Positions 10,481-32,000 of a stretch of DNA of 32,000 nucleotides are shown here, piece by piece. The translations under genes were made by a program, and so were the position numbers. The notes beneath the pieces were generated by a model. It was given only the letters and a program-made list of their open reading frames with translations. It was not told the DNA's origin and did no database searches. Source of the DNA: Ammonifex degensii KC4 (GTDB lineage Bacteria > Bacillota > Desulfotomaculia > Desulfotomaculales > Ammonificaceae); assembly GCF_000024605.1 (NCBI RefSeq), contig NC_013385.1, forward strand, positions 1,408,175 through 1,440,174, written 5' to 3'. How positions within the stretch are numbered: position 1 is the stretch's first letter; each line of letters opens with the position of its first letter.

Positions 10481-13400
10481 GTGGAGCTCTTCCTTCTAGC
10501 ACACGGCTGCCCTAACTGCAGCGGAAGCGTGACGGATGAGCGCCTAGCGGCAGGCCTTCCCTGCCCCCAGTGCCTTCCCCAAGCGGGAAACAATCTTTCC
10601 CTCGCTGCCGTTTGCTGCGCCCTGCGGAAGGAGAACAAAATAAGAGAGCTTTCCCCCTTCTGCCGGGCCGAAGAGGGGCTTAAAGAGTTCGAGCTTTTCT
10701 TCCGACAGGTCACCGGTCTTAATCTTTCTCCCTTGCAGCGGCTCTGGGCCAAGCGCTTCTTCCTGGAAGAACCCTTCGCCATCATAGCCCCTCCCGGCGT
10801 GGGGAAGACCACCTTCGGCCTGACAGTTTCTCTTTACAATCCCCAAAAATCTCTTATCCTGGTACCCACCCGCCTCCTGGTCTGGCAGGTGGCGGAAAAG
10901 CTTAGTCATTTTGCCGAAAAGGCAGGCAGCAAGAAGAAAATCCTGAGCATGACAGGCAAAGCCAAAGAGAAGAAAGAGCTTATGCAAAGCGAATACGATA
11001 TCCTGGTGGCCACCACGCAATTCTTTTACCGCCACTGGTCGGAAATCGCCTCCCACCCCATCACTCTAGTCTTTATCGACGACGTGGACGCCCTGCTCAA
11101 GAGCTCCCGCCAGGTAGACAGCCTCTTCTACTTCCTGGGCTACTCGCCGGAGGAAGTGGAAAGGGCTCTCCGCTCCCCGGAAGGGGAACCTAGAGAGGCC
11201 GGAAAGCGGCCGCAAAGGTTACTGATTCTATCTTCTGCCACCTTGAAACCCCGGACCAACCGGGTGCGCCTCTTCCAGCGGCTCATGGGCTTCTCCGTCC
11301 AGCGGGCCGTGAGCACCCAACGCCGGGTGGTGGATTGTTACGAAGAAGTGCCCGATTTCGCCCGGGCGCTGGCCCGTGCCGCCGAGCTCGTCCGGCAACT
11401 GGGACCCGGCGGGCTGGTTCTGGTAAGTCCGGAAGAAGGAAGGGAAGGGGTAAAGGAGGCAACCGCTTATCTCCAGGCCCAGGGGATAGAGGCCGAGAGT
11501 TACCTCGAACTTACTCCGGAAGAGCTGGTATCCCGGCTTGCGGAAGGCTCGCTTGAAGTGGCGGTAGGGCTGGCCCACCCCACCAACCCGCTGGTGAGGG
11601 GATTAGACCTGCCCCACGTCCTAAAGTACGTGATCTTTGTGGGAGCTCCCTCCCATTTCTTCCCGCTGGACCTCTCCCCAGCTCCCGGCGCTTTACATGG
11701 GCTGGGTCTGGCCCTCTTCCCCCTCTTCACGCCGGAAGAGCAGCGTCAGGTCCTGCGGGAGCTCAGGTATCTGCGCCCTTACCTTAACTTGCCCGCCGAT
11801 GCGGTATCCCGCTATCCCGCCCTGGAGAAACGGGTGCAAGCTTTCGCCTCTTTTCTCAAAGAAAAGCTCAAAGACCCCTCCTTCTGGGAAAAAATAAGGG
11901 CGGCCGAAGACCTAAACCTAAGAGAAGAAGAGGGAAAGCTTTATCTGGTCCTGGGAGACGCCACTACCTACCTGCAGGCTTCCGGGCGGGTCTCGCGCCT
12001 CACCGCCGCTGGTCTTACGCGCGGGCTGGCCATAACCCTGTGCACCGAGCGCCGGGTGCTCTTGAGTCTCAAGAAGCGGCTACGCGCTCTCACTCCAGCC
12101 GAGATAGAATTTATCCCCTTGCAGGAAGTTGACCTGGCCGGGGTCATGCGGGGTATCGAAGAAGATCGACGACGGATCAAAGCGGGGGAACTGGCGGATA
12201 AAGAAGGCCCCCGCACAGCGCTGGTGGTAGTGGAGTCTCCCCACAAGGCCCGCACCATTGCTTCTTTCTGGGGAAAGCCCGGAATTCGCCGGGTAAAAGG
12301 AGTGCTCGCTTATGAGATACCGGCAGATGAGCGGCACCTCATAATCACTGCTTCCCTGGGGCACGTCTTTAACCTCAGCCGGCAGCAGGGCTTCTTCGGC
12401 GTCCTCACCTTCAACCATCACTTCCTGCCCGTCTTCGACACCATAAAGATCTACCGGGAGACGGGCGAGGAGTTGGTGGACCCAGAGGAAGTGGCCCGCT
12501 ACCCGGAAGGAACGGTGTGGGACAAACAGGAAATCCTAAGGGGGTTGCAGCACCTGGCCTTCGAGGTGGACGAGGTTTACATAGCCAGCGACCCCGACGC
12601 GGAAGGAGAAAAGATCGCCTACGACCTTTACCTCTCTTTACGCCCCTTCAACCCCCACATCTACCGGCTGGAGTTCCACGAGGTTACCCCCTCCGCCTTC
12701 CGCCGGGCCCTAGAAAACCCAGGACAAGTGAATCTTTACCGCGTGCAGGCCCAGCTCACTCGGCGGGTGCTCGACCGCTGGGTAGGTTTCTGTCTCTCCC
12801 GCCGCCTTTGGCAAAAGTTCGGCAACCGCCACCTTTCCGCCGGAAGGGTTCAGACCCCGGTACTGGGGTGGGTAGTGGCCCGCGCCGAAGAAGGAAGGCA
12901 AAGAAAGGCGCGCCTGACCTTCTCCTTGGGAGAGGCTACGTTCACCTTGGAAGTGCCCGACCGAGAGCTGGGCCAGAAGATCTTCGGAGAACTGGAAAAG
13001 CTATCGTGGGAAATACTAGAGATAAGTGAGGAGGAACGGTCTCCTCTTCCTCCCTTCACCACGGACACCATACTAACCGAGGCGGCCCACCGACTGAGGC
13101 TTTCTGCGCCGGTTACCATGAAGCTCCTCCAGGAGCTTTTCGAACTGGGGTTTATCACCTACCACCGCACCGACTCCACCCGCGTCTCCGAAACGGGCCG
13201 CTTCCTCGTAGCCAAGCCCTTCATCCTCCAACACTACGGCGAGGAGCTCTTTCACCCACGCAGCTGGGGAGAAGGAGGGGCGCACGAAGCCATAAGGCCC
13301 ACCCGCCCTATGACCGAAGCCGAGCTTCGCTGGATGGTGGGAGCAGGGTTGGTAGACTTGAGCCAGGAAAGGGCACTAGAGCTTTACGGCCTCATCTTCC

Positions 13401-13912
13401 GGCGCTTCATGGCCTCGCAGATGGCTCCGGCCCGCGTGCGCAAGGCCAAGGTTCGCTTTCGGGTACCCAGCTACGCCTGGGAAACCGAGGTGGTGGTCGA
13501 GCAAATAGCGCCGGGCTTTGCCCTCCTGTGGCCTAACTTCTCCGTGACCGAGCTTCGTCCCGAGGCCCGGTTGACCGGCAAGGAGTACCGCGAACTCCCT
13601 CTGGCCGAACCTTACACCGAAGGCACCCTGGTTCAGGAAATGAAGCGGCAAGGCATAGGCCGCCCTTCTACCTACGCGGAAATCGTGGCCACCCTGCTTA
13701 ATCGCGGCTACCTGGTGGTCCGGGGAGGACGCCTTTACCCCACCCGCCTGGGCTTCAAAGTGTACCGCTACCTGAAAGAAAACTTTCCCGAGTACGCCGA
13801 CACCGCCTTAACCCGGGAGATAGAAGCGGCCATGGACCTCATCGCCGAGGGGAAGGAGGACTACCAGGAAGTGCTGCAGAAGCTGTATAAGGTCAGAGAA
13901 ATCCTCGCCTGA
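10481..13912 (+). CDS. rgy: reverse gyrase (helicase-like domain fused to topoisomerase IA)
   Basis: N-terminal Zn finger CPNCSG...CPQC; Walker A PPGVGKTT; DDVD; SSAT. Toprim motifs VVESPHKARTI and ASDPDAEGEKIA, and catalytic-Tyr motif ITYHRTDS. Start set at GTG 10481 (SD GAGGTG 6 nt upstream); GTG 10472 is the alternative. Confidence 0.95.
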   Translation: MELFLLAHGCPNCSGSVTDERLAAGLPCPQCLPQAGNNLSLAAVCCALRKENKIRELSPFCRAEEGLKEFELFFRQVTGLNLSPLQRLWAKRFFLEEPFAIIAPPGVGKTTFGLTVSLYNPQKSLILVPTRLLVWQVAEKLSHFAEKAGSKKKILSMTGKAKEKKELMQSEYDILVATTQFFYRHWSEIASHPITLVFIDDVDALLKSSRQVDSLFYFLGYSPEEVERALRSPEGEPREAGKRPQRLLILSSATLKPRTNRVRLFQRLMGFSVQRAVSTQRRVVDCYEEVPDFARALARAAELVRQLGPGGLVLVSPEEGREGVKEATAYLQAQGIEAESYLELTPEELVSRLAEGSLEVAVGLAHPTNPLVRGLDLPHVLKYVIFVGAPSHFFPLDLSPAPGALHGLGLALFPLFTPEEQRQVLRELRYLRPYLNLPADAVSRYPALEKRVQAFASFLKEKLKDPSFWEKIRAAEDLNLREEEGKLYLVLGDATTYLQASGRVSRLTAAGLTRGLAITLCTERRVLLSLKKRLRALTPAEIEFIPLQEVDLAGVMRGIEEDRRRIKAGELADKEGPRTALVVVESPHKARTIASFWGKPGIRRVKGVLAYEIPADERHLIITASLGHVFNLSRQQGFFGVLTFNHHFLPVFDTIKIYRETGEELVDPEEVARYPEGTVWDKQEILRGLQHLAFEVDEVYIASDPDAEGEKIAYDLYLSLRPFNPHIYRLEFHEVTPSAFRRALENPGQVNLYRVQAQLTRRVLDRWVGFCLSRRLWQKFGNRHLSAGRVQTPVLGWVVARAEEGRQRKARLTFSLGEATFTLEVPDRELGQKIFGELEKLSWEILEISEEERSPLPPFTTDTILTEAAHRLRLSAPVTMKLLQELFELGFITYHRTDSTRVSETGRFLVAKPFILQHYGEELFHPRSWGEGGAHEAIRPTRPMTEAELRWMVGAGLVDLSQERALELYGLIFRRFMASQMAPARVRKAKVRFRVPSYAWETEVVVEQIAPGFALLWPNFSVTELRPEARLTGKEYRELPLAEPYTEGTLVQEMKRQGIGRPSTYAEIVATLLNRGYLVVRGGRLYPTRLGFKVYRYLKENFPEYADTALTREIEAAMDLIAEGKEDYQEVLQKLYKVREILA

Positions 13913-18464: not shown

Positions 18465-18794
18465 TTAATTTAGGTTGAGCTCCAGCATAAGGTCAACTAT
18501 CTTTCCCGCCACTCTTCCCGCGCCACACTTAGCCGAGGTACATAAAAGTCGGCTCAGCATCTGCAAAAGTTCCCGGTCTTCCGGCGAAAGTTCTTCTTTT
18601 TCTAGAAGTGAGCTTAAGGCAGCGGTCCCCATGTGTCCTACCGCACACTCGCCACAGCACTCCTGGGAAGCAAAATGCAAAAACTGCACGAGCACTTCTT
18701 TGAGCGGCGTCTCCTTGGTTACCGGAGGCCCGCTGCTTATCCCCATCACGCCCACCAGTCGTGCTATCTCGCCGGGATCAAGCCTTACTGTCAT
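18465..18794 (-). CDS. stand-alone NuoF-type 4Fe-4S-binding domain protein (variant Cys motif)
   Basis: ASQECCGECAVGHMG aligns with NuoF ESCGKCTPCREG, and the distal SAKCGAG aligns with S.CALG. 109 aa; SD AAAGGAGG upstream. Confidence 0.6.
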   Translation of the reverse strand: MTVRLDPGEIARLVGVMGISSGPPVTKETPLKEVLVQFLHFASQECCGECAVGHMGTAALSSLLEKEELSPEDRELLQMLSRLLCTSAKCGAGRVAGKIVDLMLELNLN

Positions 18795-18809: not shown

Positions 18810-21242
18810 TTACCTGCCGGACTTCATCTCTTTAAGCCGCTTGTGCATATCGTTGACCGCGTCCACCCAGGCCCCGCCCGCCATCGATCCTATCTCCAGG
18901 AAGGCGAAACGGCGCGGGTCTATCCCCATGAGGGGTAGGAACTTCTCCCATATGGCCATGCGCCTGGCGACATGGACGTTGCCGTCGTGGTGATGGCAGT
19001 TGTATGGCGGACAGTAGCCCACGATGACCCCGTCGGCGCCATGAGCGAAGGCCTGAACCACGTACTGGGGGCTGACGCTGCCGCCACAGCGCACCCTGAT
19101 GATGCGCGTCCCTACCGGGTAGGAAAGCCGGGCCACACCTGCCATATCGGCCCCGGAATAGGCACACCAGTAGCAGAGGAAACCAACTATCCTGGGCTCG
19201 TCCGGCGGGACGTGTTTGAAGGCCACAGCGAGCTCCTTCTCCACCGACTCCTCGTTGAAGTTAGTTATCCTTATGGCACCCGTAGGACAGGCCGTGGTGC
19301 ATAGCCCGCAACCCTGGCAGAAAGCGGGGCTGGTGTAGTAGGTGCCGTCTTCCCGCCGCTGGATCACGCCGTGGGGACAGACTTTGGCGCAAAAACCGCA
19401 GCCACTGCACTTCTGAGGATCGACCTCGGCATAGTAGTCGAGCACCTCCACCTTCCCCTGCCGGTGATAAGGGAGGGCCCGTGCCACTGCCGCACTGGCT
19501 TCGGCGACACTGGGACTTACGGAGTTAAGGCCGGCTGCCGCTCCGACCACATAGAGCCGATGCACCGTTGATTCCGTGGGGCGGAAGACCCGGCAGCCCG
19601 GCGTATCGCCGTAAGGACCCTGGTTTATAGCGGGCAAACCCCACATGTCAAGCTTAAAGCCGAAAAGTTCAGCCAGGTTCGGTATATCCTTCCGGCTGCC
19701 CAGGGCAGTCGCTAGGACCAGGAGATCGGTCCGGAGCTTGAAGCCAGTGCCGGCAGCCCCCTCTAGGAACTCCACGTGAACCTCCAGAGTTTCCTCTTCT
19801 GCTGCCCGGGAAAGAGCAGTAACCCGGCCGCGTATTAGGTTTACCCCCGGCTGGTCCTTGATCCGACGGAAGAACTCCTCTGCCATTGGTCCGTTAGCCC
19901 GAATGTGAGAATAGATCAAGTTTATCTCCAGCTTGGGATTGAAGCGCTTGAGCAGGAAGATTTGCTTGAGGGTGTAAGCACAACAAATTTTGGAGCAGTA
20001 GGCTTTGGGCCCCTCCAGGGGCTGGAAGGGGAAACAGCCGTACTCACAGCGAGGATCGATCTCTCCCGTCTTCTCCCGCGACCCGCAGCAGAGCACGAAG
20101 GTAACGCTGCGGGGCTTGAAAGGCAACCGCTGGAGTTGAAAGCCGTATCTTTCCAGTTTAAGCGAGGTTATAATGCGCGAATCCCAGACCTCTTCCAAAA
20201 AGTCCAGCTTGACAGCAGGTATGGGGAGTTCCTCAAAGCCGGTGGCTAGCACCACACTGCCCACCCGCAGGGTTCTTTCCTGTGGTGCCGCCTGGAGATC
20301 TATGGCTTGAGCCGGACAGGCTCCGACGCAAGCCCCGCAGCGGGTGCAGGAATTGGGATCGATGGTGTAGCCCGGGGGTAGGGCCATGGGATGGGGCTTG
20401 TAGGCGGCCTTGCGGCGGCTAATTCCCATATCGAAATCGTTTTCCACTTCCACCGGACAGATTGCCGCGCAGCGCCCGCACTCCACGCACTTCTGGGAAT
20501 TGACAAACTGCGGCTCCTGCCAGAGGGTAACCAGGAAATTACCCCCGTCCTTTTTTACCTCCTTTACCCAGGTTCTGGTGAGCACCGTTATGTTGGGGTG
20601 GAGGTTGACGAGCTTCCCGATGTTGGGCATGATGCAGGAAGTAGCGCAGGAGGAAGGCCAGCTTTCATTCTGGTAAAGCATCTCCAACCGGGCCATCTGT
20701 CCACCGAGGTGCGACTCCTTCTCCACCAGCGTCACCTTTATGCCATTTCTGGCGTAGTCCAGCGCCGCCTGCATACCCGCCGGCCCTCCACCTATCACCA
20801 AAGCCTCATCGGCGATTTTGTAAGAGGCCGGATTACGCGGGCGGTTGTAAAGGACTCGCGCATGAGCCATGGCCACCAGGTCCACGGCCTTACCGGTGGC
20901 CAGCTCCTTTTGGCCGGGGTGGATCCAGGCACACTGCTCCCTTATGTTGGCTATTTCTAAAGCCGTTGTATCGCGCCCCACCTCGCGCAGCGCCCGCTTG
21001 AAGCGGAGTTCCGGAGCTGCCAGGCTGGAGCGTGGGGAACAGCCCGCCACCACCACGCGGTCAAGCTCCAGCTCCTGCACCATCTTCTGGAATAAGGCCA
21101 CACCCTCCTCCTGGCAAAGAAGAGAGTGGCGCTTGACGGTCACCACGCCGGGAAGCCGGCCACACTCCTCCACCAGGCGGTCAAAGTCCAGGTCCTGCGC
21201 CAAAGTGCCTTGGCAGTCGCAAACGAAGATCCCTACGCGCAA
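18810..21242 (-). CDS. hdrA: HdrA-like FAD/FeS oxidoreductase fused to a C-terminal MvhD (FlpD) domain
   Basis: FAD fold VIGGGPAGMQAALDYARNGIKVTLVEKESHLGGQ. HdrA Cys signature CCGSRE...YCSKICC. Ferredoxin motifs CVECGRCAAICP, CTRCGACVGACP, CSGCGFCAKVCP and CQGCGLCTTACP. MvhD-like FLCYWCAYSGADMAG...RVRCGGSVSPQYVVQAFAHGADGVIVGYC. TTG start 21242 with AGGGAGG upstream. Confidence 0.9.
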   Translation of the reverse strand: MRVGIFVCDCQGTLAQDLDFDRLVEECGRLPGVVTVKRHSLLCQEEGVALFQKMVQELELDRVVVAGCSPRSSLAAPELRFKRALREVGRDTTALEIANIREQCAWIHPGQKELATGKAVDLVAMAHARVLYNRPRNPASYKIADEALVIGGGPAGMQAALDYARNGIKVTLVEKESHLGGQMARLEMLYQNESWPSSCATSCIMPNIGKLVNLHPNITVLTRTWVKEVKKDGGNFLVTLWQEPQFVNSQKCVECGRCAAICPVEVENDFDMGISRRKAAYKPHPMALPPGYTIDPNSCTRCGACVGACPAQAIDLQAAPQERTLRVGSVVLATGFEELPIPAVKLDFLEEVWDSRIITSLKLERYGFQLQRLPFKPRSVTFVLCCGSREKTGEIDPRCEYGCFPFQPLEGPKAYCSKICCAYTLKQIFLLKRFNPKLEINLIYSHIRANGPMAEEFFRRIKDQPGVNLIRGRVTALSRAAEEETLEVHVEFLEGAAGTGFKLRTDLLVLATALGSRKDIPNLAELFGFKLDMWGLPAINQGPYGDTPGCRVFRPTESTVHRLYVVGAAAGLNSVSPSVAEASAAVARALPYHRQGKVEVLDYYAEVDPQKCSGCGFCAKVCPHGVIQRREDGTYYTSPAFCQGCGLCTTACPTGAIRITNFNEESVEKELAVAFKHVPPDEPRIVGFLCYWCAYSGADMAGVARLSYPVGTRIIRVRCGGSVSPQYVVQAFAHGADGVIVGYCPPYNCHHHDGNVHVARRMAIWEKFLPLMGIDPRRFAFLEIGSMAGGAWVDAVNDMHKRLKEMKSGR

Positions 21243-21289: not shown

Positions 21290-21976
21290 CTAAAGTCTAA
21301 CACTTCCTACCTGCCTCGACAAGCTTTTTTCACCAAAGGAAAGAGCCTGGCGGGGGCAGGCCGCCACGCAGGAGCCGCATTTCAGGCAGTCGCCGTCCCC
21401 CATTACTCCTTGCTGGCGGAAAAAGTGGGGCTGGAGCTTGAGGGGGCAGAAGCGGGAGCACACCCCACAACCCACGCAGGAGGGGGCCACCAGAAGCGGC
21501 TTCTTCCCGCGACCGAATAAGTTCGCCAAGGTGCCCATAGGACAGATCAGGCACCAGGCACGCGGGTGGAAAATGAGCCCCAGCAAAACGCCCACCAGGG
21601 TGGTCACGGTTAAAACCTTAACCAGCGCCAACCCCATGGCGGGAATATTCCCCCAGTTAAGGTACCACTGGACGCCTATGACGGCAAAAATCAGGATCAA
21701 AAAGAAGATCCTCACAGGCCAACTCCTGAAGAAAGCAGGGGTGGAGCGCTTGGCCGAGAGAGAGGACAAAAACAGATCGAAAAAGGCACCGCGGGGACAC
21801 ATCCAGTCGCACCAGGCCCGCCCCCGCGAAAAGGAAAGACCCACCGCCCCCAGCATGCATCCCAGCAGCAGGAAGCCCAGCCACGGATAAAACCACCCCC
21901 CTACCGCTACCAAGGGAAGCCCGATCCAGGTGTAGAGCTGGCGCTTCCTTCTCTCAAGAAGCTTTTCCCGCAGCAA
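21290..21976 (-). CDS. NapH/MauN-like integral-membrane polyferredoxin
   Basis: TM helices with CDWMCPRG and CLICPMG motifs, plus C-terminal CVGCGVCSRFCP and CLKCGSCVAACP. Start set at TTG 21976 (GGAGGAGG 7 nt upstream). The ORF-track start at 22042 lies inside the promoter. Confidence 0.75.
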   Translation of the reverse strand: MLREKLLERRKRQLYTWIGLPLVAVGGWFYPWLGFLLLGCMLGAVGLSFSRGRAWCDWMCPRGAFFDLFLSSLSAKRSTPAFFRSWPVRIFFLILIFAVIGVQWYLNWGNIPAMGLALVKVLTVTTLVGVLLGLIFHPRAWCLICPMGTLANLFGRGKKPLLVAPSCVGCGVCSRFCPLKLQPHFFRQQGVMGDGDCLKCGSCVAACPRQALSFGEKSLSRQVGSVRL

Positions 21977-22019
21977 ACTCTCGCCTCCTCCGATATACCC
22001 TATGGGGTATCTAGAAGCA

Positions 22020-22049
22020 ATTATAGAAGCCTCCCCTCCCACCTGTCAA
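22020..22049 (-). promoter_or_regulatory. near-consensus sigma-70-type promoter upstream of the NapH-like gene
   Basis: Minus strand reads TTGACA (22049..22044)-18 nt-TATAAT (22025..22020). Confidence 0.55.
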
Positions 22050-22084: not shown

Positions 22085-24631
22085 CTAGCTCTGGGTTGCG
22101 TTCTCCCCGGTTTCCTGTTCTTCTAGAGCTTTAACCTTTTCCTCGTACCACACCGGATGGTGAACCTTGGCCCACTCGGGCGAGACCTTGCCTGTCACCA
22201 GCAGGCGCCAGGTACCGGGGTTGGCCAGCGTGCCCAGGTAGGCGTGGCCCAGCACCGCCAGGATCAAGATCAGCGCTGAGATACCGTGCAGTGGCACCAT
22301 CCAGTGCCAGAGGGCCGGACTTACCTTCTGGCCGAAGATCATTACCACGCCGCTTATGCCGATAGCCAGGGTGAGGAAGGTGGTCAGCCAGTAGAAAAGC
22401 TTCTGTCCGGCGTTGAACTTGCCTGCCGGGGCATGCACCTCCCGGCGGCTGAAGTAGCCGCCCATGACCCGCAGCCACTCCCGGTCGTAGGAAGCGAAGC
22501 GAGCGTCCTTCCACCACCGTACGATGGCCCACAGGGAGCTCAACCCGAAAACCAAACCCATCGACCAGTGCCACACTCGCGCCGTCTCGTAGCTGCCGAA
22601 GAGAAACTCTATTGCTCCCACACGGTGGAAGGCGAAGAGCAGACCGGTAACCGCCAGGAAGATGAAGCTCAGCATCCTCACCAAGTGAACCACACGCTCA
22701 TCCAGGGAGAAGAGTTCTAGCCCAGCTGGGCACTGGGTGAGGCAAGTTCCCCGCGGCCCGATGACCACGTAGTGCAGGGAGAAAGCCAGGAGCAAGCCCG
22801 CCAGCAGCAGGGCGAAAAGCGGCGAGAGAAGGGTCAGGTACAGGTTGGTGAAGGAGAAGCTGAGCGGCGTCCAGCCCAGAAGCCAGGCCTGCTTGATCGT
22901 GACCGGCTTCCCGTCAGGGCCGTAGGGATCGACCACTATATCCTGGTAAAGCTTTCCCTGCTTGCTGTGGCAATCGGAGCAACCCTTGGCACCCAGAGCC
23001 ATCCCCGTCGGCGACACGTTGTGGTTGATGCAGAAAGTAGGCTCCTCCAGACTCGGATCCTCAGTCGCCTTCAGATTGCCGTTTCGGTCAAGCTCCCAGA
23101 CCTTCCCGCCCTTGTAATAGACAGGCGAGATCTGCTTGAAACGGCCGGGATTCTTTGCAAGCACCTGCCGGCAGGTGGTAAGCAGGAGTTTGATCTCCTC
23201 CGGCGTGTTTACCTCGGGCACGCCGTCGCCGTTATCGTCGCGGATCTTGCCCTTCAGCCGCTCCCAGACGGGCTTGATCTCCTTGAAGAAGAGCGGATAG
23301 ATTATCCCGTCCGCGTCGCGGTTACCCACCCACACTGCATGGATGACGTTTACCGGCTGGATCAAGCCCTTACGGGGATGCCTTAGCCACTGCGGCTGCC
23401 AAACGGCGGCGTCTCCTATCTTCTTACCCACCAGCGGCACGTCCACCATGGTTCCGGTGACCACATCGGCCGCCAGATCAGGGGCCCGGCCGATCTGGGG
23501 GATGTGGCAGGCCTCGCATGCCAGGCGCTTCAGGTGGCTGGGCGGGATTTTCTCATGCTTGGGCCGCGGTGCACCCATGATCCCCTTTTCGTGGCACTCC
23601 CGGCAGGAGTAGACGGTGTTCCGGAGCTCTGACGCAACAGTCTCCCCTAGATCGTCCCCCATGGCTATCTGGTGGTTGATGGTAGCGATCCCCTTAGCCT
23701 GATCGTTCACGAGAAAGTGGCAGGTAGTGCACTTGAGCCCGCGCTGCTGGTGAAGATCGGGATTCAGCCGATCGCCCCAGCTGAAACCACGCTTCTTCTG
23801 GTCGGAGATACCGTGGCAGAAAAGGCAGTTTCTAGGCTCCGGACTGGTTACGAAGGCAGCGTGGCTTATGGTGCCGTCGGGGTTAAACTTCTTGAGATCG
23901 TACTTCACCTTGGGCGTTTCCCCTTGGGCCACCGCTCCGGTCACCTGCCCCAAGCCCGCTCCCACGGTGGCCGCCCACTTATAGTTGCGCAACTTCAGTT
24001 GTTTGGTCCGCGCTTGCCAGTCATAACCGGGATAGTGGCAGAGCAGGCAGTCAGCCTCCACCACTCCGCTCTTGTCCCATGCGCTCTGGAAGTAATCCCC
24101 ATCCAAAGTGGTGCGCAGCTCCGGATTGGCCTTCAAACGCAGATCGTAGCGCTGGCCCTCCCGGTCGTACTCCATTCCTCCTCCGCCGGGGTGGCAGGAA
24201 CCGCAGGTAGGCTTCGGATCGGCAGGATTGCCAAATCCTATGAAGTCATAAGGAGTAAGGTCGATGGCTGCAGCGTTAGAGTTCTGCTTGGCCGCCAACT
24301 GGCGGTAGGAAGGTGGTCACCACTTCCCCATCATCCCGTTAGACAGGACCCAGGGCTTTTCCTTGCTGTAGCCGTCTTTGATGACATCCCAGCCCTGCTG
24401 AAAGTGGTAACCTTTGGTGATAGCCTCGTAATCGTGGCAGGCGCCGCAGGTCTGGCGGGGACTGTAGGGTTGATCGGCGTTCTCTCCCGTTACGGGGTTA
24501 ATGATGGCTCCCGTCTCGGTACGCAGGTAAAAGAACGGAGCCTTACCTGCTCCCCGCACCGCGGCCGGGAACGAGATCAACCCCACAAGCAGCAGCACAG
24601 TCAGGAAAGGTACCCCCTTCCGGTAGCGCAT
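22085..24631 (-). CDS. octaheme cytochrome c fused to an FdnI/PhsC-type cytochrome b; contains an in-frame TGA at 24319..24317 (candidate Sec/read-through, or a nonsense mutation)
   Basis: Signal peptide MRYRKGVPFLTVLLLVGLISFPAAVRGAG. Eight CxxCH motifs: CGACH | CGSCH, CLLCH, CLFCH, CTTCH, CRECH, CEACH, CSDCH. One linker TM and four cytochrome-b-like TMs (HLVRMLSFIFLAVTG, GKFNAGQKLFYW, HGISALILILAVLGHAYLG). The two track ORFs (24317..24631 and 22085..24298) share one frame. Confidence 0.75.
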
Positions 24632-24681
24632 TCTCCTCCCTCCCTTCGGCGAAAATTTTTAATATAACCCTTTGGTGTATG

Positions 24682-24711
24682 AGTATATACCCTGGGGTGT
24701 AAAGTAGTCAA
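24682..24711 (-). promoter_or_regulatory. candidate promoter of the cytochrome gene
   Basis: Minus strand reads TTGACT (24711..24706)-18 nt-TATACT (24687..24682). The imperfect palindrome TACACCC-CA-GGGTATA overlaps the spacer and -10 box. Confidence 0.35.
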
Positions 24712-24882
24712 AGCGCGCCCAAAGGAGAAAATAAGGAAGGAAATTTAGAACAAGAAAGCTGGCGCTGGAACTTGCCCCAATACTTCTCCCCAGGCTACCA
24801 ACCGCAAATTGCCTCCGCATTTCGGAGGAATGATAAGATTGAGAAAGGAACTCCTTCCACTCTGAAGTCGAGGAGGGAAAAA

Positions 24883-26244
24883 GTGAAGGTTAATTATGAT
24901 GTGGTGGTAATAGGTGGAGGAACAGCAGGAGTGACCGCCGCCACTACGGCGCGGCGCCACTACCCGGATAAAAAGGTTTTGCTTATCCGGCGGGAGGAAA
25001 AGACCCTTATCCCCTGCGGCATCCCCTACATGTTTGGAGTCTTAGACGATCCCTGCAAAAATGTAAATCCAGACTATATCCTGAGCATCCGGGGAATCGA
25101 AGTCAAAGTGGGAGAAGTAAAGGAGATCGTGCGGCAGGATAAAAAGCTGGTGATGACCTCAGGGGAGGAAATCGGTTATGACCGCCTAGTCCTGGCTACC
25201 GGTTCCCGCCCCGCCTTGCCCGCCATACCTGGCATCGACCAGGAAAACGTTTTTTGGATAAAGAAGGAGCTGCCCTATCTCCAGAAAGTGCTTGCCGCCC
25301 TGGCCGAAGCCCGCCGGGTAGTGATAATCGGCGGGGGATTCGTAGGAGTGGAACTGGCAGAGCAAATCAGAAAATACCGGCAACTGGAGGTCACCATAGT
25401 AGAAATTCTGCCTTATTGTCTCTACACTTCCTTCGACGAAGAGTTCTGCTTCGAAGCCGAGCGAGAACTCCAGGCCCTAGGGGTGGACATACTCACCGAA
25501 AAGAAAGTGGCGGAACTGGCCGGCAATGGCAAAGTAAAAGAGGTAAGGCTGGAAGACGGCACCGTGCTGCCCGCCGACGTGGTCATAATAACCACGGGGG
25601 TGCGGCCGGTGACCGAGCTGGCCGAGGCTGCCGGGCTTTCTCTGGGTCCCACCGGGGGAATCCTGGTGGACCGAACTATGGCCACCTCCGATCCTAACAT
25701 CTTCGCCTGCGGCGACTGCGCCGAAAAGTTCTCCTTCTTCGGCGGTAACCCGGTGCGTATACGCTTAGCCTCGGTGGCCGCCATGGAGGCGCGGGTAGCC
25801 GGCGCCAACCTCTTCGCCCGCCGCCGGGAGAACCCCGGTACGGTAGGGGTCTTCTCCACCAGGATCGGCGATAAGGCCTTCGGCGCCGCCGGGCTCATCG
25901 AGCGGATAGCCGAGGAGGAAGGATACGACGTGCTGCTGGGGGAGGCTTCTGCCCCCAACCGCCACCCTAGCGCCCTTCCCGGAACCTTCGACACCAAGGT
26001 GAAACTGGTGTTTGACCGCTACACCGGCATCCTGCTGGGAGGGCAAGCGGTAGGCAGCGAAAGCGTGGGCGAGCTCGTGAATCTCTTGAGCGCTTGTCTG
26101 CTGCACCGCATGACGGCCGTGGAAATGGCCGCCTTCCAGATGGGGACTCACCCCCTCCTCACCCCCTCCCCGCCGGCCTACCCGCTAGTAGTGGCGGCAG
26201 AGGAGGCAGCGGTGGCCAAGCTGGAGAAGAAACGGGAAGAGTAA
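24883..26244 (+). CDS. FAD-dependent pyridine nucleotide-disulfide oxidoreductase (NADH oxidase / CoA-disulfide reductase family)
   Basis: YDVVVIGGGTAGV, a single redox Cys in LIPCGIPYMF, a second dinucleotide fold VVIIGGGFVGVELAE, and ACGDCA. Start set at GTG 24883 (AGGAGGG 5 nt upstream). The ORF-track start at 24772 adds 37 unsupported residues. Confidence 0.85.
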   Translation: MKVNYDVVVIGGGTAGVTAATTARRHYPDKKVLLIRREEKTLIPCGIPYMFGVLDDPCKNVNPDYILSIRGIEVKVGEVKEIVRQDKKLVMTSGEEIGYDRLVLATGSRPALPAIPGIDQENVFWIKKELPYLQKVLAALAEARRVVIIGGGFVGVELAEQIRKYRQLEVTIVEILPYCLYTSFDEEFCFEAERELQALGVDILTEKKVAELAGNGKVKEVRLEDGTVLPADVVIITTGVRPVTELAEAAGLSLGPTGGILVDRTMATSDPNIFACGDCAEKFSFFGGNPVRIRLASVAAMEARVAGANLFARRRENPGTVGVFSTRIGDKAFGAAGLIERIAEEEGYDVLLGEASAPNRHPSALPGTFDTKVKLVFDRYTGILLGGQAVGSESVGELVNLLSACLLHRMTAVEMAAFQMGTHPLLTPSPPAYPLVVAAEEAAVAKLEKKREE

Positions 26245-26284: not shown

Positions 26285-26372
26285 TGGTGCCGGAGGGGGG
26301 ACTCGAACCCCCACGGGGGTGAACCCCATACGCCCCTCAAACGCACGCGTCTGCCAATTCCGCCACTCCGGC
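26285..26372 (-). tRNA. tRNA-Leu (anticodon GAG)
   Basis: Hand-folded cloverleaf. Acceptor GCCGGAG/CTCCGGC, anticodon stem TGCGT/GCGTA, loop TTGAGGG, long variable arm TGGGGTTCACCCCCGT, T-arm GGGGG-TTCGAGT-CCCCC, and an encoded CCA. Confidence 0.93.
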
Positions 26373-26431: not shown

Positions 26432-27199
26432 CTATTTCTCGGTCACTGCCTGACCAGGTTCCAACGGCACAAGCCTCGCCTTGCCCCAGACTCCCAGGTG
26501 CTTCCCGATGATGACCACCGCTCCTAGAACTCCGGGAATTTTCTGGATAAAAGAAAGGGCTTCTTCTATATCTTCAGGCGTCTGGACCCGGTTGCCCAAG
26601 GCAGTAGCCGCCGCGTCGGCGAGGGTAGCGGTAGAGGCCAGCACCACCGCCGCGTCGGCCTTTCCAAAGCTTAAGGAGTGTCCCACCGTGCCTGAAGAGG
26701 TACAAATTCCCAGAGGAGTAAGATTGGCCGGAATAGCTAGCGCCACCCGGGAGGAGAGGGGAGAATTGCCAGCATAGATGCCCACCGTCCTCTGGCGCGT
26801 GCTCTTAAGGTAAATGTCCCCGCCGTTTTCCACCACTACCTCCCGGGAAAAACGGCCCAGATACTTGCCTACCAGATCGGCGAAGGCCCCAGCCACCGCC
26901 GCCATCGGTCCTACCCCGACAAGCCTCGCCGCCTCCGCCATGGCCCAAGCTATCGGTGGAGCATCAGGAAGGACCTGGTGAGGCGTGAGCGCAGTGGCAA
27001 AAGCGGGATCGCGCCTCAAGTATTCTTCCAAAAGCTGCCGCTGCTCCCGCACCAATTTCTCCACTTTCCAGACCAAGGAGGGGGAGAAACGCTCACGCCG
27101 GACCCCCAGCAAAAGATCGGTTTCCTTGACCTTTACCTCGAAAAAGGTAAGATCCTCTTGCCTTAGCCAAGCCCGGTAAACCCGGCGCTTTTCCGGCAC
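26432..27199 (-). CDS. UPF0280 / COG2122 ApbE-like protein
   Basis: 255 aa, directly downstream of the COG1900 and NIL-ferredoxin genes, the genomic association known for this family. The sequence pattern (GGDIY..., ICTSSGTVGHSLSFGKADA) is consistent from memory. Confidence 0.7.
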   Translation of the reverse strand: MPEKRRVYRAWLRQEDLTFFEVKVKETDLLLGVRRERFSPSLVWKVEKLVREQRQLLEEYLRRDPAFATALTPHQVLPDAPPIAWAMAEAARLVGVGPMAAVAGAFADLVGKYLGRFSREVVVENGGDIYLKSTRQRTVGIYAGNSPLSSRVALAIPANLTPLGICTSSGTVGHSLSFGKADAAVVLASTATLADAAATALGNRVQTPEDIEEALSFIQKIPGVLGAVVIIGKHLGVWGKARLVPLEPGQAVTEK

Positions 27200-27200
27200 C

Positions 27201-27602
27201 CTAGAAGCGTACCTCCATGGCCCTCATGGGGCAAGCCCGGACGCAGAGCTGACAGACCACGCAGGCCTCCCCATCAAAACGAACCAGCATGGAAGGGCGC
27301 TCAAAGTGAAGCGCTCCTGTAGGGCAGATGGCCGTGCAGGCTCCGCAATGGGTACAGCGCTCCTCGTTCCGGATGATCTCTTCCGTGAGAGGCTGCACCG
27401 CTACCCCCTGGCGGTGCAAATAGTCAAGCCCCTCTTTTACCCTTTCGCCGGTGACCTCCAGCACCATCATCCCTTCCTTGTGAGGGTTGATGTTGGCCTT
27501 GAGGATGTTGATCATCAGGTCGTAATCCTTTACCAGACGATAAATTATCGGCTTGTCCGCTATGGCGGCAGGGAAGCGCAGCACTACCTTGCTGGGGGGC
27601 AT
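27201..27602 (-). CDS. NIL domain + 2x[4Fe-4S] ferredoxin protein
   Basis: N-terminal NIL-like domain (KPIIYRLVKDYDLMINILKANI) followed by CTHCGACTAICP and CVVCQLCVRACP. Confidence 0.85.
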   Translation of the reverse strand: MPPSKVVLRFPAAIADKPIIYRLVKDYDLMINILKANINPHKEGMMVLEVTGERVKEGLDYLHRQGVAVQPLTEEIIRNEERCTHCGACTAICPTGALHFERPSMLVRFDGEACVVCQLCVRACPMRAMEVRF

Positions 27603-28822
27603 TACCCTCTACCCTCCTTCACGCCTCTTATCTCCAGGGTCTTGGGGACAATACCGGCTTCAGGCCCCGGTAGCGGAGCTACCGGCTCCGTCAGCAAGAA
27701 CTTCCCTTCTTGTATCCACTCCTTCAGAATCTGACAAATCTCCCGCGCCCGCGCATAACTCGACAAGGAAGCGGTGGGAACTTCTTTGCCGTTAATGGTT
27801 ATCTTGCCCGAGCGCAGCTCGGCGTAGCTCACCCAACCTAGATTCCCCGGCCGTCTCTGGGGGTAGGCCTCAGCGTAGTCCACGATGGGCGCGTAAAGCT
27901 CCCGGTCGGGACGGGAAGCGTAGTAGCAGACCTCTTCGTCTAGGATGGGTATGGCCACTCCTATTCCCACCGATAGAGAAACCCCGTAACCCAACATGCT
28001 TGTTCCCCTCAACCAGCGGGGGCTCATCTGTTTGAGGTCGCCCATCACCGCCAGCGTGCCGCCGGAGGGTATGCGTACCGCTCCGGCGGGGAGATCGGGG
28101 ATGGAGGGGAAGTGCTGGGTGCCGTGGTTCACCACGTAGCCTATCCCGCCTCCCAGGAATATCCTGGTGCCTATGCCTATAGTGCGGAAGAAGGGATCCT
28201 TGAGCAAGGGGCTGAGCTGCCCAGAAGTAGAGTAGTGGGCGTTGCCCAGCCGCGGCTTCAGAACCCCCATGTAGGTGTAAAGGGTGCGGTCACCCGTGTT
28301 AACCGCGCAAGCGTAGTTCTGGTAGGCGTTGCGCGGGTTGAAAAGGAAAGCCTCGTTAATATCATCCAGGGTGATGACCGTCTCTATCTCCCGGCGGGGA
28401 TAGCAGTCCGTGCCGTAACCTATAGCCCTTAGCTTTACCGGACGGCGTGCCACCAGGTCTTCAATCACGTGCCCGCCGCCGTAGCGAAATTCACCCGGCG
28501 GATCGGTGTTAAGCGGATCTCCTTCCCGCACTGCCGTAGCCCCCAGGAAGGCATCCACCGCGGCCAAACCGGCGTAGGCAGGAACGTCGTTGAGCCAGAC
28601 CCGGAAAAACTTGATCCGAGGGGCACCATGTCCAAAGTTGAAAAAGGCCCCGGAAGAACACATGGGAGCGAAAGTGCCCGTGGTGACCACGTCCACCTCC
28701 CGGGCCACCTGTTTTACCCCTTTCTCTTCTACCAGCGACACCAGCTCTTCCGCGGTCACCACCACTACTTTGCCAGCCTTAATCTTTTCGTTGATTTCGG
28801 CAAAAGTCCTGTAGGCACCCAT
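27602..28822 (-). CDS. homocysteine biosynthesis protein (DUF39 / COG1900)
   Basis: N-terminus KTFAEINEKIKAGKVVVVTAEE...DVVTTGTFAPMCSSGAFFNFGH is typical of COG1900. The gene is preceded by a SAM riboswitch. Confidence 0.85.
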   Translation of the reverse strand: MGAYRTFAEINEKIKAGKVVVVTAEELVSLVEEKGVKQVAREVDVVTTGTFAPMCSSGAFFNFGHGAPRIKFFRVWLNDVPAYAGLAAVDAFLGATAVREGDPLNTDPPGEFRYGGGHVIEDLVARRPVKLRAIGYGTDCYPRREIETVITLDDINEAFLFNPRNAYQNYACAVNTGDRTLYTYMGVLKPRLGNAHYSTSGQLSPLLKDPFFRTIGIGTRIFLGGGIGYVVNHGTQHFPSIPDLPAGAVRIPSGGTLAVMGDLKQMSPRWLRGTSMLGYGVSLSVGIGVAIPILDEEVCYYASRPDRELYAPIVDYAEAYPQRRPGNLGWVSYAELRSGKITINGKEVPTASLSSYARAREICQILKEWIQEGKFLLTEPVAPLPGPEAGIVPKTLEIRGVKEGRG

Positions 28823-29123: not shown

Positions 29124-30380
29124 CCAGAGTTTCGTTCACAGAGGTTTTTGAAGTTGAAGAGCGTATTAAAGAGGGTGGGGATCCCCTCCCTTCTACACTT
29201 CTGGCAAGTGTACCTTAAAGAAAGGAGGAACCCCACCCGATGACATTATACCAGCAACTTAAGAGGAGCGGAAACCCCCACGCAATCGCCCAAACCGTGG
29301 CCTCCCTCCTCACCACCTGTAGCCCTAAAGAGGTAGCCCGCATAATGGGCTGCTCCGTCCGCTGGATCTATAAACTGCGCAAACGCCTAAACGAATCCGG
29401 CGGAAACTTGTCCGGTTGTATCCTCCCTCGCGGCCCCAAAAAAAGAATGCCCAACCGTACCCCTCAAGAACTCGAAGCCCTAGTCGTAAAACTCGCTCAG
29501 GAAACTAACCTGGGCCCTAAACGCCTCGCCTCCCTCCTGTACCAAAGCCTTAAAATTAAGCTCTCCCCCTACACCATACGAAATATCCTCAAACGCCACC
29601 ACATCCGCTGCCGCAAACGCCAAAGCAAAACAGGCTCCCGAAAATACTGGACCGACGTGCAGGCCTTCGCACCCTTCTCCTTCTGGCAGGTCGATGTAAA
29701 ACACATAGCCGATAAGTCAGCTCTGCCGGCCCAAGCCTACTCCTCTATCCTCAAAAACCGCCTACCCCGTTACCAATTCACCGCTATCGATGTTCGAACA
29801 AGAGTGCGGTTCATAGCCTTCGCCTATTCCCTCTCCTTCGCCAACGGAATCGCTTTCCTTGTGCTCCTGGCAAACTGGCTTAAAACCTTCGGCCTTAATC
29901 AAACAATCTTTATCCAGACCGATAATGGCTCGGAGTTCGGTGGCCCTCCTAACTCGAGAAAGCGTAAACTCATGTCCCTTATCTTCTCTCGCCTTGACTG
30001 CCAGCTGCTTAACATACCCGCAGGCAGAAAAGAAGCCAACGGCTATGTAGAAAGATCACACCGCACCGACGATGAAGAGTTCTACATCCCCTACCTGGCA
30101 GGTATCAGAAGCCAGAAGGATTTCCTTATCTCTGCCCAGAGGTGGATCCTTTACTACAACTACCAGCGTCCACATCTGGGCCGGGAACTGAACGGGAAAA
30201 CTCCTATGGAAATAGCGACCTCGCTTTCCCACTACCATCCGGCTATAGGGGCTATGCCGGTGGTAGTCCTGGATCACCTGGCTCCGCACATCTTCGATGC
30301 CTACAAACTCTCTACTCTCCCGTGGGATTACCCACCCAAAAATGAAAGCCTCGCTGTGAACGAAACCCTGGCTCAATACA
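29124..30380 (+). mobile_element. IS481-family insertion sequence (1257 bp)
   Basis: About 32-bp imperfect terminal inverted repeats: TGTAGAAGGGCCAGAGTTTCGTTCACAGAGG at the left and the reverse complement of TGTATTGAGCCAGGGTTTCGTTCACAGCGAGG at the right. A single DDE transposase ORF, flanked by a 15-bp direct repeat. Confidence 0.85.
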
Positions 30381-30478
30381 CACTCGGTAAAGCCAAGGCT
30401 TCACCTATCTCGCGGAAGAGGGGAGCGGCATCTTCTCCGCCTCCTCGCCCCCCTTCCTCCATGACCACCACCACGTAG
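29240..30478 (+). CDS. IS481-family DDE transposase (HTH + rve integrase core)
   Basis: N-terminal HTH region. DDE triad context WQVDVKHI, IQTDNGSEF and NGYVERSHRT. The ORF has no stop inside the IS; its last ~33 codons (30381..30478) are read-through into flanking DNA. Confidence 0.9.
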   Translation: MTLYQQLKRSGNPHAIAQTVASLLTTCSPKEVARIMGCSVRWIYKLRKRLNESGGNLSGCILPRGPKKRMPNRTPQELEALVVKLAQETNLGPKRLASLLYQSLKIKLSPYTIRNILKRHHIRCRKRQSKTGSRKYWTDVQAFAPFSFWQVDVKHIADKSALPAQAYSSILKNRLPRYQFTAIDVRTRVRFIAFAYSLSFANGIAFLVLLANWLKTFGLNQTIFIQTDNGSEFGGPPNSRKRKLMSLIFSRLDCQLLNIPAGRKEANGYVERSHRTDDEEFYIPYLAGIRSQKDFLISAQRWILYYNYQRPHLGRELNGKTPMEIATSLSHYHPAIGAMPVVVLDHLAPHIFDAYKLSTLPWDYPPKNESLAVNETLAQYTLGKAKASPISRKRGAASSPPPRPPSSMTTTT

Positions 30479-32000
30479 CGCGGCGACTCCAAAGGAAAGA
30501 AGCCGGCAAACCAGGAACAGCGCTTTCCTCCGGGGAGCTCGGCCGTACCTGTCTTCCCCCCACTGCCAACTTCAGGAATATAACCTAGACGCGCCGTGCC
30601 TTCTTGCACGGCCAGAGCCATCATGTCACGTACTTCCCGCGCTACCGTGGGAGAGAAAATCCTTTTCCCTTTATCCGGGGGAAGCTCCGTCATCTTTCCT
30701 TGCTGGCGTATCCCTTTTACCAGCCGGGGGCGGACGTAAACCCCGTCGTTAAGCAAAGTGTTCAGCACCGACGCCACCTGAACCGGGGTGAGGAGCAGAG
30801 GACCTTGACCCACGCTCAGATTGACCAAGCTGTAGGGCTCCATTAGGTTCTTGGGGTTCTGCCAGGGATCGGCGGGCATGGGATAACCTATCACGGATCG
30901 CTCGTGCAAATAAAGCTCCCGGCAATACCGGATAAGCTTCTCTTTTCCCAGCCTCAGCCCCACCTGGGCAAAGACCGGATTGCAGGACCGGGCAAAGGCC
31001 TGACGGAAGGTGAGGTGGCCGTGCCCTTCCTTCTTCCAACAAGGGAGCAACGGGCCTTCCACTCCCCGGCAGCAAAAGCTCTCTTCCGGCCGCACTACCC
31101 CTTCTTCAAGTGCGGCCGCCGCCACCACCATCTTGAAGACCGAACCGGGAGGATAGGAAGCGAAAGCCCGGTCGAAGAAAGATACGTCCGGTCCCTGCTT
31201 TTCGGGGTGGGCCGGGTCGAAAGTGGGACGGCTGGCCACCGCTAGCAAATCTCCCTTCCCCACCTCCAGTACTACCACCGCTCCCCGAAAACGATGTTTG
31301 TCCAGAACCTCCTCCACTTTGCGTTGCAGTTCGCTATCCAGCGTAAGCTGCACTTCTCCCCGCTCCGGATCGGCAACGGTGAAAAGCTCGACTCCAGTCC
31401 TGTTTAACAACTTCCCTTGGGCATCGCGGTAAATCCCGGCGGCCAGGGAAGGAAAGCTTCCCTGTAAGACGGCGTCGTAAAAGTATTCGCACCCTTGCTT
31501 GCCCACCCATTCTCCCCGGCTGCGCCGCCTCTCTTCCGGAGAAGAAACCTTCCCTACGTAACCCACCACGTGCGCCGCCAGCGGAGGAGAACTGTAACGG
31601 GTCCAGTAGGGCAGGACGAAAAGACCCGGCAAGTTAAGGCTTTTAACCGCCGCTTCCTGCTCCGGGGTGAGAGAATAGGGGAGAACACCAGCTTCCTTCC
31701 GGAGCTCCCTCTCCAGTTCTTCCACCGGCTTCCCTAGAAGCGCACTCAGCTGCCGGGCCGCCTCTCGCCGATCGGGTAGGAGAGAGGCGAAAAAGACGAT
31801 CCGCTTCTCCTCTCTTCCCCCGGCTAGCACCCGGCCGTGACGGTCGACTATTCTTCCTCGGGGATATTCTTCTAGGGAAACAGTAAAGGTCTGCTGGCTG
31901 AAGGCCGCCCAGGCATACCGGGCGTGCTGCCGCAGCTGCAAACTTGCCAGGCGCACTGCCAGGCAGGAAAAGCCCAAAAAACTTATCAGGAGAAGCCAAA
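30373..32000 (-). CDS. class-B penicillin-binding protein (PBP2/SpoVD-like transpeptidase), 5' end beyond the window
   Basis: SxxK (PGSVFKM), SxN (RSCNP) and KTG (GKTGTAE) motifs. The frame stays open to position 32000 through a TM-like WLLLISFLGFSCLAV, so the real start is outside the window. The current stop lies inside the IS. Confidence 0.9.
   Translation of the reverse strand, partial: WLLLISFLGFSCLAVRLASLQLRQHARYAWAAFSQQTFTVSLEEYPRGRIVDRHGRVLAGGREEKRIVFFASLLPDRREAARQLSALLGKPVEELERELRKEAGVLPYSLTPEQEAAVKSLNLPGLFVLPYWTRYSSPPLAAHVVGYVGKVSSPEERRRSRGEWVGKQGCEYFYDAVLQGSFPSLAAGIYRDAQGKLLNRTGVELFTVADPERGEVQLTLDSELQRKVEEVLDKHRFRGAVVVLEVGKGDLLAVASRPTFDPAHPEKQGPDVSFFDRAFASYPPGSVFKMVVAAAALEEGVVRPEESFCCRGVEGPLLPCWKKEGHGHLTFRQAFARSCNPVFAQVGLRLGKEKLIRYCRELYLHERSVIGYPMPADPWQNPKNLMEPYSLVNLSVGQGPLLLTPVQVASVLNTLLNDGVYVRPRLVKGIRQQGKMTELPPDKGKRIFSPTVAREVRDMMALAVQEGTARLGYIPEVGSGGKTGTAELPGGKRCSWFAGFFPLESPRYVVVVMEEGGRGGGEDAAPLFREIGEALALPSVY
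30381..30395. repeat. 15-bp target-site duplication, right copy (CACTCGGTAAAGCCA)
   Basis: Identical to 29109..29123. Confidence 0.8.

Follow-up and report, generated by a model that had tools for sequence, protein, structure and literature searches.

A UGA-interrupted octaheme cytochrome gene of Ammonifex degensii probably encodes a membrane-anchored selenoprotein of a new family

We describe here a stretch of 32,000 nucleotides from Ammonifex degensii KC4 (contig NC_013385.1, positions 1,408,175 to 1,440,174; hereafter the window), in which two annotated open reading frames (ORFs) on the reverse strand, judged from the sequence, are a single gene for a membrane-anchored eight-heme cytochrome, interrupted by an in-frame UGA at 24319-24317. 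We consider it very likely, with a probability of roughly 0.88, that this UGA is decoded as selenocysteine (Sec) with the help of a bona fide bacterial selenocysteine insertion sequence (SECIS), in the form of a hairpin directly downstream. A first-pass annotation, made from the letters alone, had proposed one octaheme precursor with a recoded UGA and a SECIS-like hairpin; that proposal gains support from homologs that are contiguous across the site, from conservation of the TGA, and from a hairpin specific to TGA-type genes.

The complete putative selenoprotein gene occupies 22085..24631 (-) and holds 848 sense or Sec codons followed by TAG, as read from its translation and from collinear homologs. 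The upstream ORF (24631..24320, -) starts with ATG, encodes a signal peptide and the heme motif CGACH, and ends ...SNGMMGKW-TGA. Beyond the TGA the frame continues as PPSYRQ-L(TTG 24298)-AAK... for 743 codons up to the TAG at 22085 (ORF 22085-24316), giving a joined length of 104 + 1 + 743 = 848 residues. The proposed Sec105 (24317..24319, -), placed by translation and by the homolog column, stands in the context GKW-U-PPSYRQLA. One CxxCH motif lies upstream of the UGA and seven lie downstream, starting at C62, C143, C195, C269, C301, C343, C372, and C551. The layout first sketched for the two ORFs, including their coordinates, the continuation of the frame, the 848 residues, and the eight hemes, was reproduced in full by translation. 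The stretch analysed is that of A. degensii KC4 itself, and a database protein from the same genome is 100% identical to the downstream ORF.

The signals for translation and export sit at the 5′ end of the joined gene. The ATG at 24631 is preceded by a Shine-Dalgarno (SD) region, GAAGGGAGGGAGGAG (24633..24647, -), the sole ribosome-binding site of the joined gene, and it opens a putative signal peptide, MRYRKGVPFLTVLLLVGLISFPAAVRG (24551..24631, -), followed by AG and recognized by its sequence features. The sole start codon of the downstream ORF is the TTG, and neither an SD nor any purine-rich tract is found ahead of it, the upstream letters being ccaccttcctaccgccag. The translated downstream part also has no signal peptide, so that, as a separate product, it could not have its seven hemes attached. 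Both the TTG-only start without an SD and the missing signal peptide had been pointed out before and are confirmed from the sequence. In the databases the locus currently appears as two entries, one a hypothetical protein of 104 aa and the other (P0001, 100% identical) a "formate dehydrogenase gamma subunit" of 696 aa that begins at an internal Met, with heme motif 2 cut off.

Translation of the joined frame predicts a signal peptide, an eight-heme c-type domain, five transmembrane helices, and a di-heme cytochrome b like that of FdnI. The earlier term "octaheme cytochrome" is thus right about the c-type hemes and incomplete as a description, since an FdnI-type cytochrome b membrane domain is fused to them. 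This domain (22130..22717, -; residues ~639-834) scored 136.5 bits with TIGR01583, against a cut-off of 115.85, and 74.4 bits with PF01292 (1.2e-20); it matched Protein Data Bank (PDB) chain 1kqf_C with E = 4e-19 by sequence, and its His columns 649, 688, 782, and 796 are conserved. As a structural proxy we used the AlphaFold model of P0003, the closest full-length homolog (predicted local distance difference test score 87.4, predicted template-modeling score 0.82), which matched 1kqf_C by fold with a template-modeling score of 0.84 and a root mean square deviation of 2.1. Model score, His ligands, and fold therefore all place the domain in the FdnI/HydC cytochrome b group. In the P0003 model, an N-terminal heme domain with a beta-rich insert is followed by five long helices, of which the last four superpose on FdnI; such a topology would put the heme domain outside the cell and the C terminus inside. 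The c-type domain itself is related only distantly to known families. When the family profile was compared with PDB sequences, the only matches were FdnI and, weakly, the heme 4-5 region of NrfA (E ~2e-3).

A search with the joined cytochrome domain gave more than 1,000 homologs, the best 118 full-length ones of which (~850 aa, 44-53% identity) align without gaps over the junction and have all eight heme motifs, as well as the cytochrome b domain, in common with it. At the UGA column, these 118 have Tyr (89), Cys (18), Ser (6), Arg (3), or Gly (2). The first-pass annotation had asked whether this column is Cys or TGA among homologs; both occur, with Cys in 18/118 and TGA in several lineages, and the homologs are contiguous. 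The ortholog of Desulfothermobacter acidiphilus (79% identity, syntenic locus) reads ...DGMMGRW-TGA-PPSYRQLAAK with the TGA at the identical column. TGA stands at the Sec column in L005/L001, L006, L002, L003, L004, L007, L009, L010, L013, L021, and L022. In all, it is conserved there in at least five distantly related lineages, with the frame intact on either side. One of these genes, from Gemmatimonadota (L003:5207-6949), has a part of 580 aa past its TGA, seemingly too short for a cytochrome b anchor, and the Sec-bearing heme module may occur in more than one architecture.

These genes came to light in two ways. A degenerate DNA pattern, requiring G-x-x-G-x-W-TGA-(4 codons)-R-Q-L-A and leaving codon third positions free, had five matches in species-representative genomes. 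All five were true orthologs with the frame open on both sides: A. thiophilus, D. acidiphilus, a metagenome-assembled genome (MAG) of Delongbacteria, a Gemmatimonadota MAG, and one unclassified bacterium. In metagenomes, six of seven matches were true orthologs and one was a chance match. Because the pattern demanded TGG before the TGA, it recovered only the minority W-U subtype; a much larger group, with F, M, H, or Q ahead of U, was found by protein search with the 104-aa N-terminal ORF. Every one of the best 120 database matches to this ORF is a protein of 98-138 aa that terminates exactly at the Sec column, with endings of ...GK-F (88) or -M (21), then -H, -Q, -W, and -L, and the sources include Desulfobacca acetoxidans, Syntrophales, Desulfobacteraceae, and Thermodesulfobacteriota. 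All told, more than 120 database entries of ~105 aa stop at this point. Two such fragments read at the DNA level (L021 and L022) continue with TGA and then PPSFRQLAKK, giving read-through products of 856 and 791 aa. In a representative library at 50% identity, 321 proteins match the fragment, and 45 of the 148 examined terminate at the Sec column. Several proteins of 180-390 aa from this library do so after longer N-terminal extensions.

The candidate SECIS is a core hairpin, CCGCC-AGUU-GGCGG (24292..24305, -), whose stem starts 11 nt after the UGA and whose loop has G-U at positions 2-3. On a reading of the sequence, the stem could be extended below by CUU (24312-24310) pairing with AAG (24289-24287) across a CCUA/CC internal loop (24287..24312, -); this lower stem varies in form between orthologs, and its pairing is not consistent in a gapless alignment. 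Position, spacing, and possible extension all agree with what had been noted at first. The first-pass annotation had also compared the spacing with that of the minimal E. coli fdhF SECIS, and the published geometry of that element bears this out: its stem-loop lies at a distance of 11 nt from the UGA, and its apical loop holds a G and a U that are the SelB contacts (PMC8659212). The A. degensii element resembles it in the 11-nt distance at which the stem-loop begins and in the loop G and U (here within A-G-U-U). It differs in its shorter stem of four invariant pairs and one covarying pair, in having no bulged U, and in a loop G-U that sits 2 nt closer to the UGA.

What gives this hairpin its significance is that the same TGA and hairpin recur together in every TGA ortholog and that the hairpin is absent from the sampled Cys, Ser, and Tyr homologs. 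Considered from the window alone, the evidence for it is weak: CCGCCN4GGCGG occurs once, 0.16 occurrences are expected, and 16 of 100 shuffled sequences contain at least one match. Across genes, CGCCAGUUGGCG, comprising the CGCC/GGCG stem and the AGUU loop, starts 12 nt after the UGA in 12/12 distinct TGA genes read at the DNA level. The next pair outward from this 4-bp stem is C-G in five cases, U-A in five, and C.A in one, and the C-G/U-A exchange of this closing pair is a compensatory change.

Codon usage over the hairpin leads to the same conclusion. In 10 TGA genes and one variant with GGA in place of TGA, the residues R, Q, L, and A are each written with a single codon (CGC CAG TTG GCG), as they are in L021 and L022, and for each of the neighboring conserved Gly, Pro, Pro, and Ser the same 11 sequences use three to four different codons. 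R-Q-L-A is conserved as protein in non-Sec homologs too, which therefore provide a natural control for codon fixation; among six Cys, Ser, or Tyr homologs there are 3 different codons for R, 2 for Q, 4 for L, and 3 for A, and none of the six has the hairpin. A covariance model, which the first-pass annotation had suggested as a check, was built from 11 sequences with L021 and L022 held out. It separates TGA genes, at 43 bits or more (49 and 43 bits for the held-out L021 and L022), from homologous non-Sec sites, at 19.7 bits or less. The hairpin, a stem-loop directly past the UGA with a conserved loop G(U), is a specific feature of TGA-type genes, and selection acts on it at the level of the RNA.

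The GGA variant deserves separate mention. On a Logan contig from SRR13298155 (L014:6298-6345), which encodes P0003, GGA (Gly) replaces the TGA and the full hairpin, CCGCCAGUUGGCGG, is kept; it looks as if Sec had recently been lost to Gly and the SECIS had stayed behind as a fossil. Also on this contig are an AIRS/AIRS_C gene, which may be SelD-like, a TusA-DsrE fusion gene, and a C_GCAxxG_C_C gene. Arg-type homologs were likewise considered as recent Sec losses, and the idea was dropped for them since both P0090 (CGC) and P0045 (CGA) are without the hairpin.

Some of our observations weigh against decoding as Sec. The fold of 24260-24325 is unexceptional (z = -0.97), and the minimum free energy structure pairs differently when upstream sequence is included. 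A permissive E-value Rfam scan of 23900-24700 returned only noise and no SECIS family. The upper stem has just 4-5 bp and is without the bulged U of the E. coli element. In the wider family the Sec column is Tyr in most members and Ser, Gly, or Arg in some, and this variability implies that the residue is not universally essential. Finally, the Ammonifex clade is without a Cys at column 31 that accompanies Sec in most Sec forms, a point to which we return below.

How else might the UGA be handled? Reassignment of UGA throughout the genome is ruled out, as TGA terminates three other genes in the window. A programmed read-through independent of SelB, in which the hairpin stimulates a near-cognate tRNA (Trp, Cys, Arg, or Gly) and an ordinary residue is inserted, would be compatible with the tolerance of the wider family for Cys, Ser, Gly, Arg, and Tyr at the column, with the GGA that stands ahead of an intact hairpin in L014, and with the lack of an Rfam SECIS match. 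We regard such read-through as unlikely. In bacteria, such UGA read-through, driven efficiently by a stem-loop, is not known as an established mechanism, which counts against it, and the hairpin sits where a bacterial SECIS would and carries the loop G-U of one. Retention of TGA across phyla, together with the existence of Cys homologs, is moreover the standard signature of a selenoprotein. A further point against it is that a published survey (Peng et al. 2016, PMC5029168, Tables S1 and S2) lists A. degensii KC4 as SelD+, SelA+, and SelB+ and credits it with three known selenoproteins; none of selA, selB, selC, and selD lies within the window.

Two further explanations would do without recoding altogether. 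If the UGA were a true stop, the locus would give a secreted monoheme cytochrome (24631-24317) and, by translational coupling, a heptaheme-cytochrome b protein re-initiated at TTG 24298. The databases do hold the locus in this form in Ammonifex, Desulfothermobacter, and Desulfobacca, and the TTG is 18 nt past the stop. We find this highly improbable, however, as the downstream protein would have no signal peptide for attachment of its seven hemes and the TTG has no SD ahead of it; that TTG is the Leu of the conserved R-Q-L-A, homologs run continuously through it, and the PPSYRQ between TGA and TTG is conserved as protein. The remaining idea, a nonsense mutation in a pseudogene or a sequencing error in the A. 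degensii assembly, derives some appeal from the fact that TGA is one substitution away from TGC or TGT (Cys), GGA (Gly), CGA (Arg), TCA (Ser), and TGG (Trp), several of which occur in homologs. It is effectively refuted by the comparative data, in which the identical TGA, always with intact flanking frames, is found in separately assembled genomes from two further genera of this lineage and across many lineages not related to it.

Returning to the Sec reading, we imagine that the hairpin 11 nt past the UGA (CCGCC/GGCGG, loop AGUU) would be bound by SelB-GTP-Sec-tRNASec as the ribosome nears, so that Sec would be inserted at the UGA and translation would go on to yield one 848-residue precursor. 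The signal peptide would export the N-terminal ~560 residues, to which eight c-type hemes would be attached, with Sec105 predicted to lie in the loop that joins heme motif 1 to heme motif 2. The membrane anchor would consist of five predicted helices, those of the FdnI-type di-heme cytochrome b among them. The product may thus be a self-contained quinol-linked oxidoreductase facing the cell exterior. By analogy with MccSep/ExtKL (GSU2937-2936), a polysulfide reductase from Geobacter sulfurreducens that was proven biochemically and structurally in 2025-26 to be a multiheme cytochrome c with Sec (PMC13510729), Sec might serve as the nucleophile in a catalytic site whose substrate would be a sulfur or selenium compound, for example polysulfide.

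That raises the matter of what Sec105 might work with. The only universally conserved Cys residues are the 16 of the heme motifs. Against its eight hemes, the c domain has seven conserved His outside the motifs, and one heme may therefore lack a His distal ligand. One of the seven stands at column 31 (window ~24539-24541), which is His in 116/117 non-Sec homologs and Cys in 115/120 Sec-type fragments; the W-U subtypes mostly keep His, and the Ammonifex/Desulfothermobacter clade has Ala or Val (Ala31 in A. degensii). Unique to this clade is a non-heme Cys, Cys534 (F-C-INHNV; 23030..23032, -), which is a candidate partner for Sec105. It lies in a conserved F-x-I-N-H-N-V motif, and in most Cys-type homologs a second Cys precedes that motif by a few residues. 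Such coupling of Cys31 or Cys534 with Sec suggests that a second thiol, close to a heme, cooperates with residue 105. The Sec325 (U325) of MccSep acts beside the heme-ligating Cys239 (PMC13510729). A catalytic function of Sec at a heme site analogous to that of MccSep is a tentative extension of this comparison.

Directly downstream of the cytochrome gene is one for a NapH-like membrane polyferredoxin (21290..22042, -), in an order that is syntenic in Desulfothermobacter and A. thiophilus. Next comes a gene for an HdrA-like flavoprotein fused to MvhD (18810..21242, -), also syntenic in L001, followed by one for a small NuoF-type 4Fe-4S protein (18465-18794). On the other side, a divergent gene (24772..26244, +), syntenic in L001 as well, encodes a flavoprotein of the CoA-disulfide-reductase/NADH-oxidase family. 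In Desulfothermobacter the cytochrome gene has these same genes on either side. The neighbors are therefore NapH-like, HdrA-MvhD, and CoA-disulfide-reductase-like, with no FdnG or FdnH adjacent, and a role as a subunit of a formate dehydrogenase-N complex was rejected on that ground. Outside the Ammonifex/Desulfothermobacter operon we found no conserved neighborhood; the other lineages have only scattered DsrE, TusA-DsrE, and rhodanese genes nearby.

Two neighborhoods of homologs are nonetheless worth recording. Upstream of a Cys-type homolog, L015:1165-5736 holds genes for rhodanese, small ORFs, multiheme cytochromes, and a 397-aa protein without a Pfam match, a set reminiscent of the extHIJKL (rhodanese-porin-cytochrome) cluster that contains MccSep. 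On Zixibacteria-type contigs (L016:2994-5789 and L017:31-2952), a different fusion of multiheme c and cytochrome b (931-973 aa) adjoins the homolog, implying that several families of such fusions coexist.

The window has other features of interest, apart from the cytochrome. A gene for a TnpB-family RNA-guided endonuclease (563-1879, -) abuts an ORF (1854-2306, -) that contains only the first ~100 residues of a YifB/Mg-chelatase-like ATPase, a gene probably truncated by the mobile element. A full-length reverse gyrase gene, a hallmark of hyperthermophiles, is found at 10472-13912 (+) (TIGR01054, 1172 bits). Genes of the COG1900-type homocysteine-biosynthesis (HcyBio), NIL-ferredoxin, and PRK04334 families form a sulfur-incorporation cluster at 26432-28822 (-), which is syntenic with Desulfothermobacter and adjoins a tRNA-Leu(GAG) at 26285-26372. 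Farther along, an IS481-family transposase gene (29240-30478, +) overlaps the 3′ end of a PBP2-like gene (30373-31977, -) by ~100 nt.

Taken as a whole, these findings point to a new, large selenoprotein family defined by an octaheme domain, an N-terminal Sec, and a fused quinol-oxidizing anchor; Sec multiheme cytochromes themselves were already known. The family appears widespread in Desulfobacterota and is present in thermophilic Firmicutes, Gemmatimonadota, and Delongbacteria. No description of it was found in the literature or selenoprotein catalogues searched, and NCBIfam has no dedicated model for the heme domain. Recognizing the family corrects a systematic annotation error, in that Ammonifex, Desulfothermobacter, Desulfobacca, and hundreds of metagenomic contigs hold a ~105-aa "hypothetical protein" and a truncated "formate dehydrogenase gamma subunit" in its place. 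The few cytochrome families so far catalogued as selenoproteins would gain a large one, and the 12-nt SECIS core CGCCAGUUGGCG, which is invariant to an unusual degree, can serve directly as a probe for further members. A membrane-anchored, quinol-linked octaheme enzyme with Sec, in which a change from His to Cys goes along with Sec, is a concrete biochemical target and could reveal a way for some anaerobes to respire sulfur or related compounds without Psr-type molybdoenzymes.

Among known proteins, each of those closest to the A. degensii cytochrome shares some parts of it. With FdnI, the gamma subunit of E. coli formate dehydrogenase-N, it has in common the homologous C-terminal ~200 residues, including the conserved His columns. 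It is not, however, a formate dehydrogenase subunit, and the name "formate dehydrogenase gamma subunit" fits the anchor domain only. CbcL (GSU0274), an inner-membrane quinol oxidoreductase of G. sulfurreducens (PMC9129911), is likewise a fusion, with a periplasmic multiheme c domain at its N terminus and a di-heme b-type membrane domain at its C terminus. Its published description, with nine bis-His hemes packed compactly into 250 residues, six transmembrane helices, and no Sec reported, sets it apart from the A. degensii protein, which has eight hemes in ~560 residues and five predicted helices. Whereas the hemes of CbcL are bis-His, the family described here has seven conserved candidate distal His, and Ammonifex has six of them.

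A 2026 catalogue of prokaryotic selenoproteins includes three cytochrome-related families, namely, ExtKL (NF040886), a GSU2204-family CXXCH protein, and the OTR-family octaheme cytochromes (PMC13188914); none of the three models was matched above threshold. OTR proteins are also octaheme c-type cytochromes, some of them annotated with Sec (PMC13188914), but they are without the cytochrome b fusion. The A. degensii protein scored 49.6 bits with the OTR model TIGR04315 (E = 3e-13, residues 191-383), against a cut-off of 375, and is thus not a member. Nor does it belong to the MccSep/ExtKL family, given its eight hemes and N-terminal Sec: NF040886 was not among the NCBIfam matches at E <= 1e-3. 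In the comparison of the family profile with PDB sequences, no MccSep chain was matched, the inclusion of MccSep in that copy of the PDB being uncertain.

It is MccSep/ExtKL, although of a different family, that offers the closest parallel. The first-pass annotation knew of no characterized Sec in cytochromes of this kind, and MccSep/ExtKL has since supplied one (PMC13510729). Each of the two is an exported multiheme c-type cytochrome with a gene that an in-frame UGA divides into two annotated ORFs, and in each case a SECIS-like hairpin follows the UGA directly. The homologs of both vary between Sec and Cys, and in both Sec is followed by Pro (DG-U-P in MccSep, KW-U-PP in A. degensii). The Sec of MccSep/ExtKL lies beside a His/Cys-ligated heme, for which the His-to-Cys change in most Sec forms of the A. 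degensii family is a possible parallel. MccSep is soluble, with five hemes and with Sec325 on a C-terminal Ig-like domain, whereas the A. degensii protein has eight hemes, Sec105 near its N terminus, a ~150-residue beta-rich insert, and a fused cytochrome b anchor. A. degensii is a sulfur reducer, as is Geobacter; that the substrate is polysulfide or S0 is a conjecture. One might, with due caution, go on to envision a second, independently evolved class of multiheme selenoenzyme, in which Sec105 and Cys31 or Cys534 act at a c-type heme and a single polypeptide wired to the quinone pool serves as a respiratory reductase of polysulfide, sulfur, or another chalcogen.

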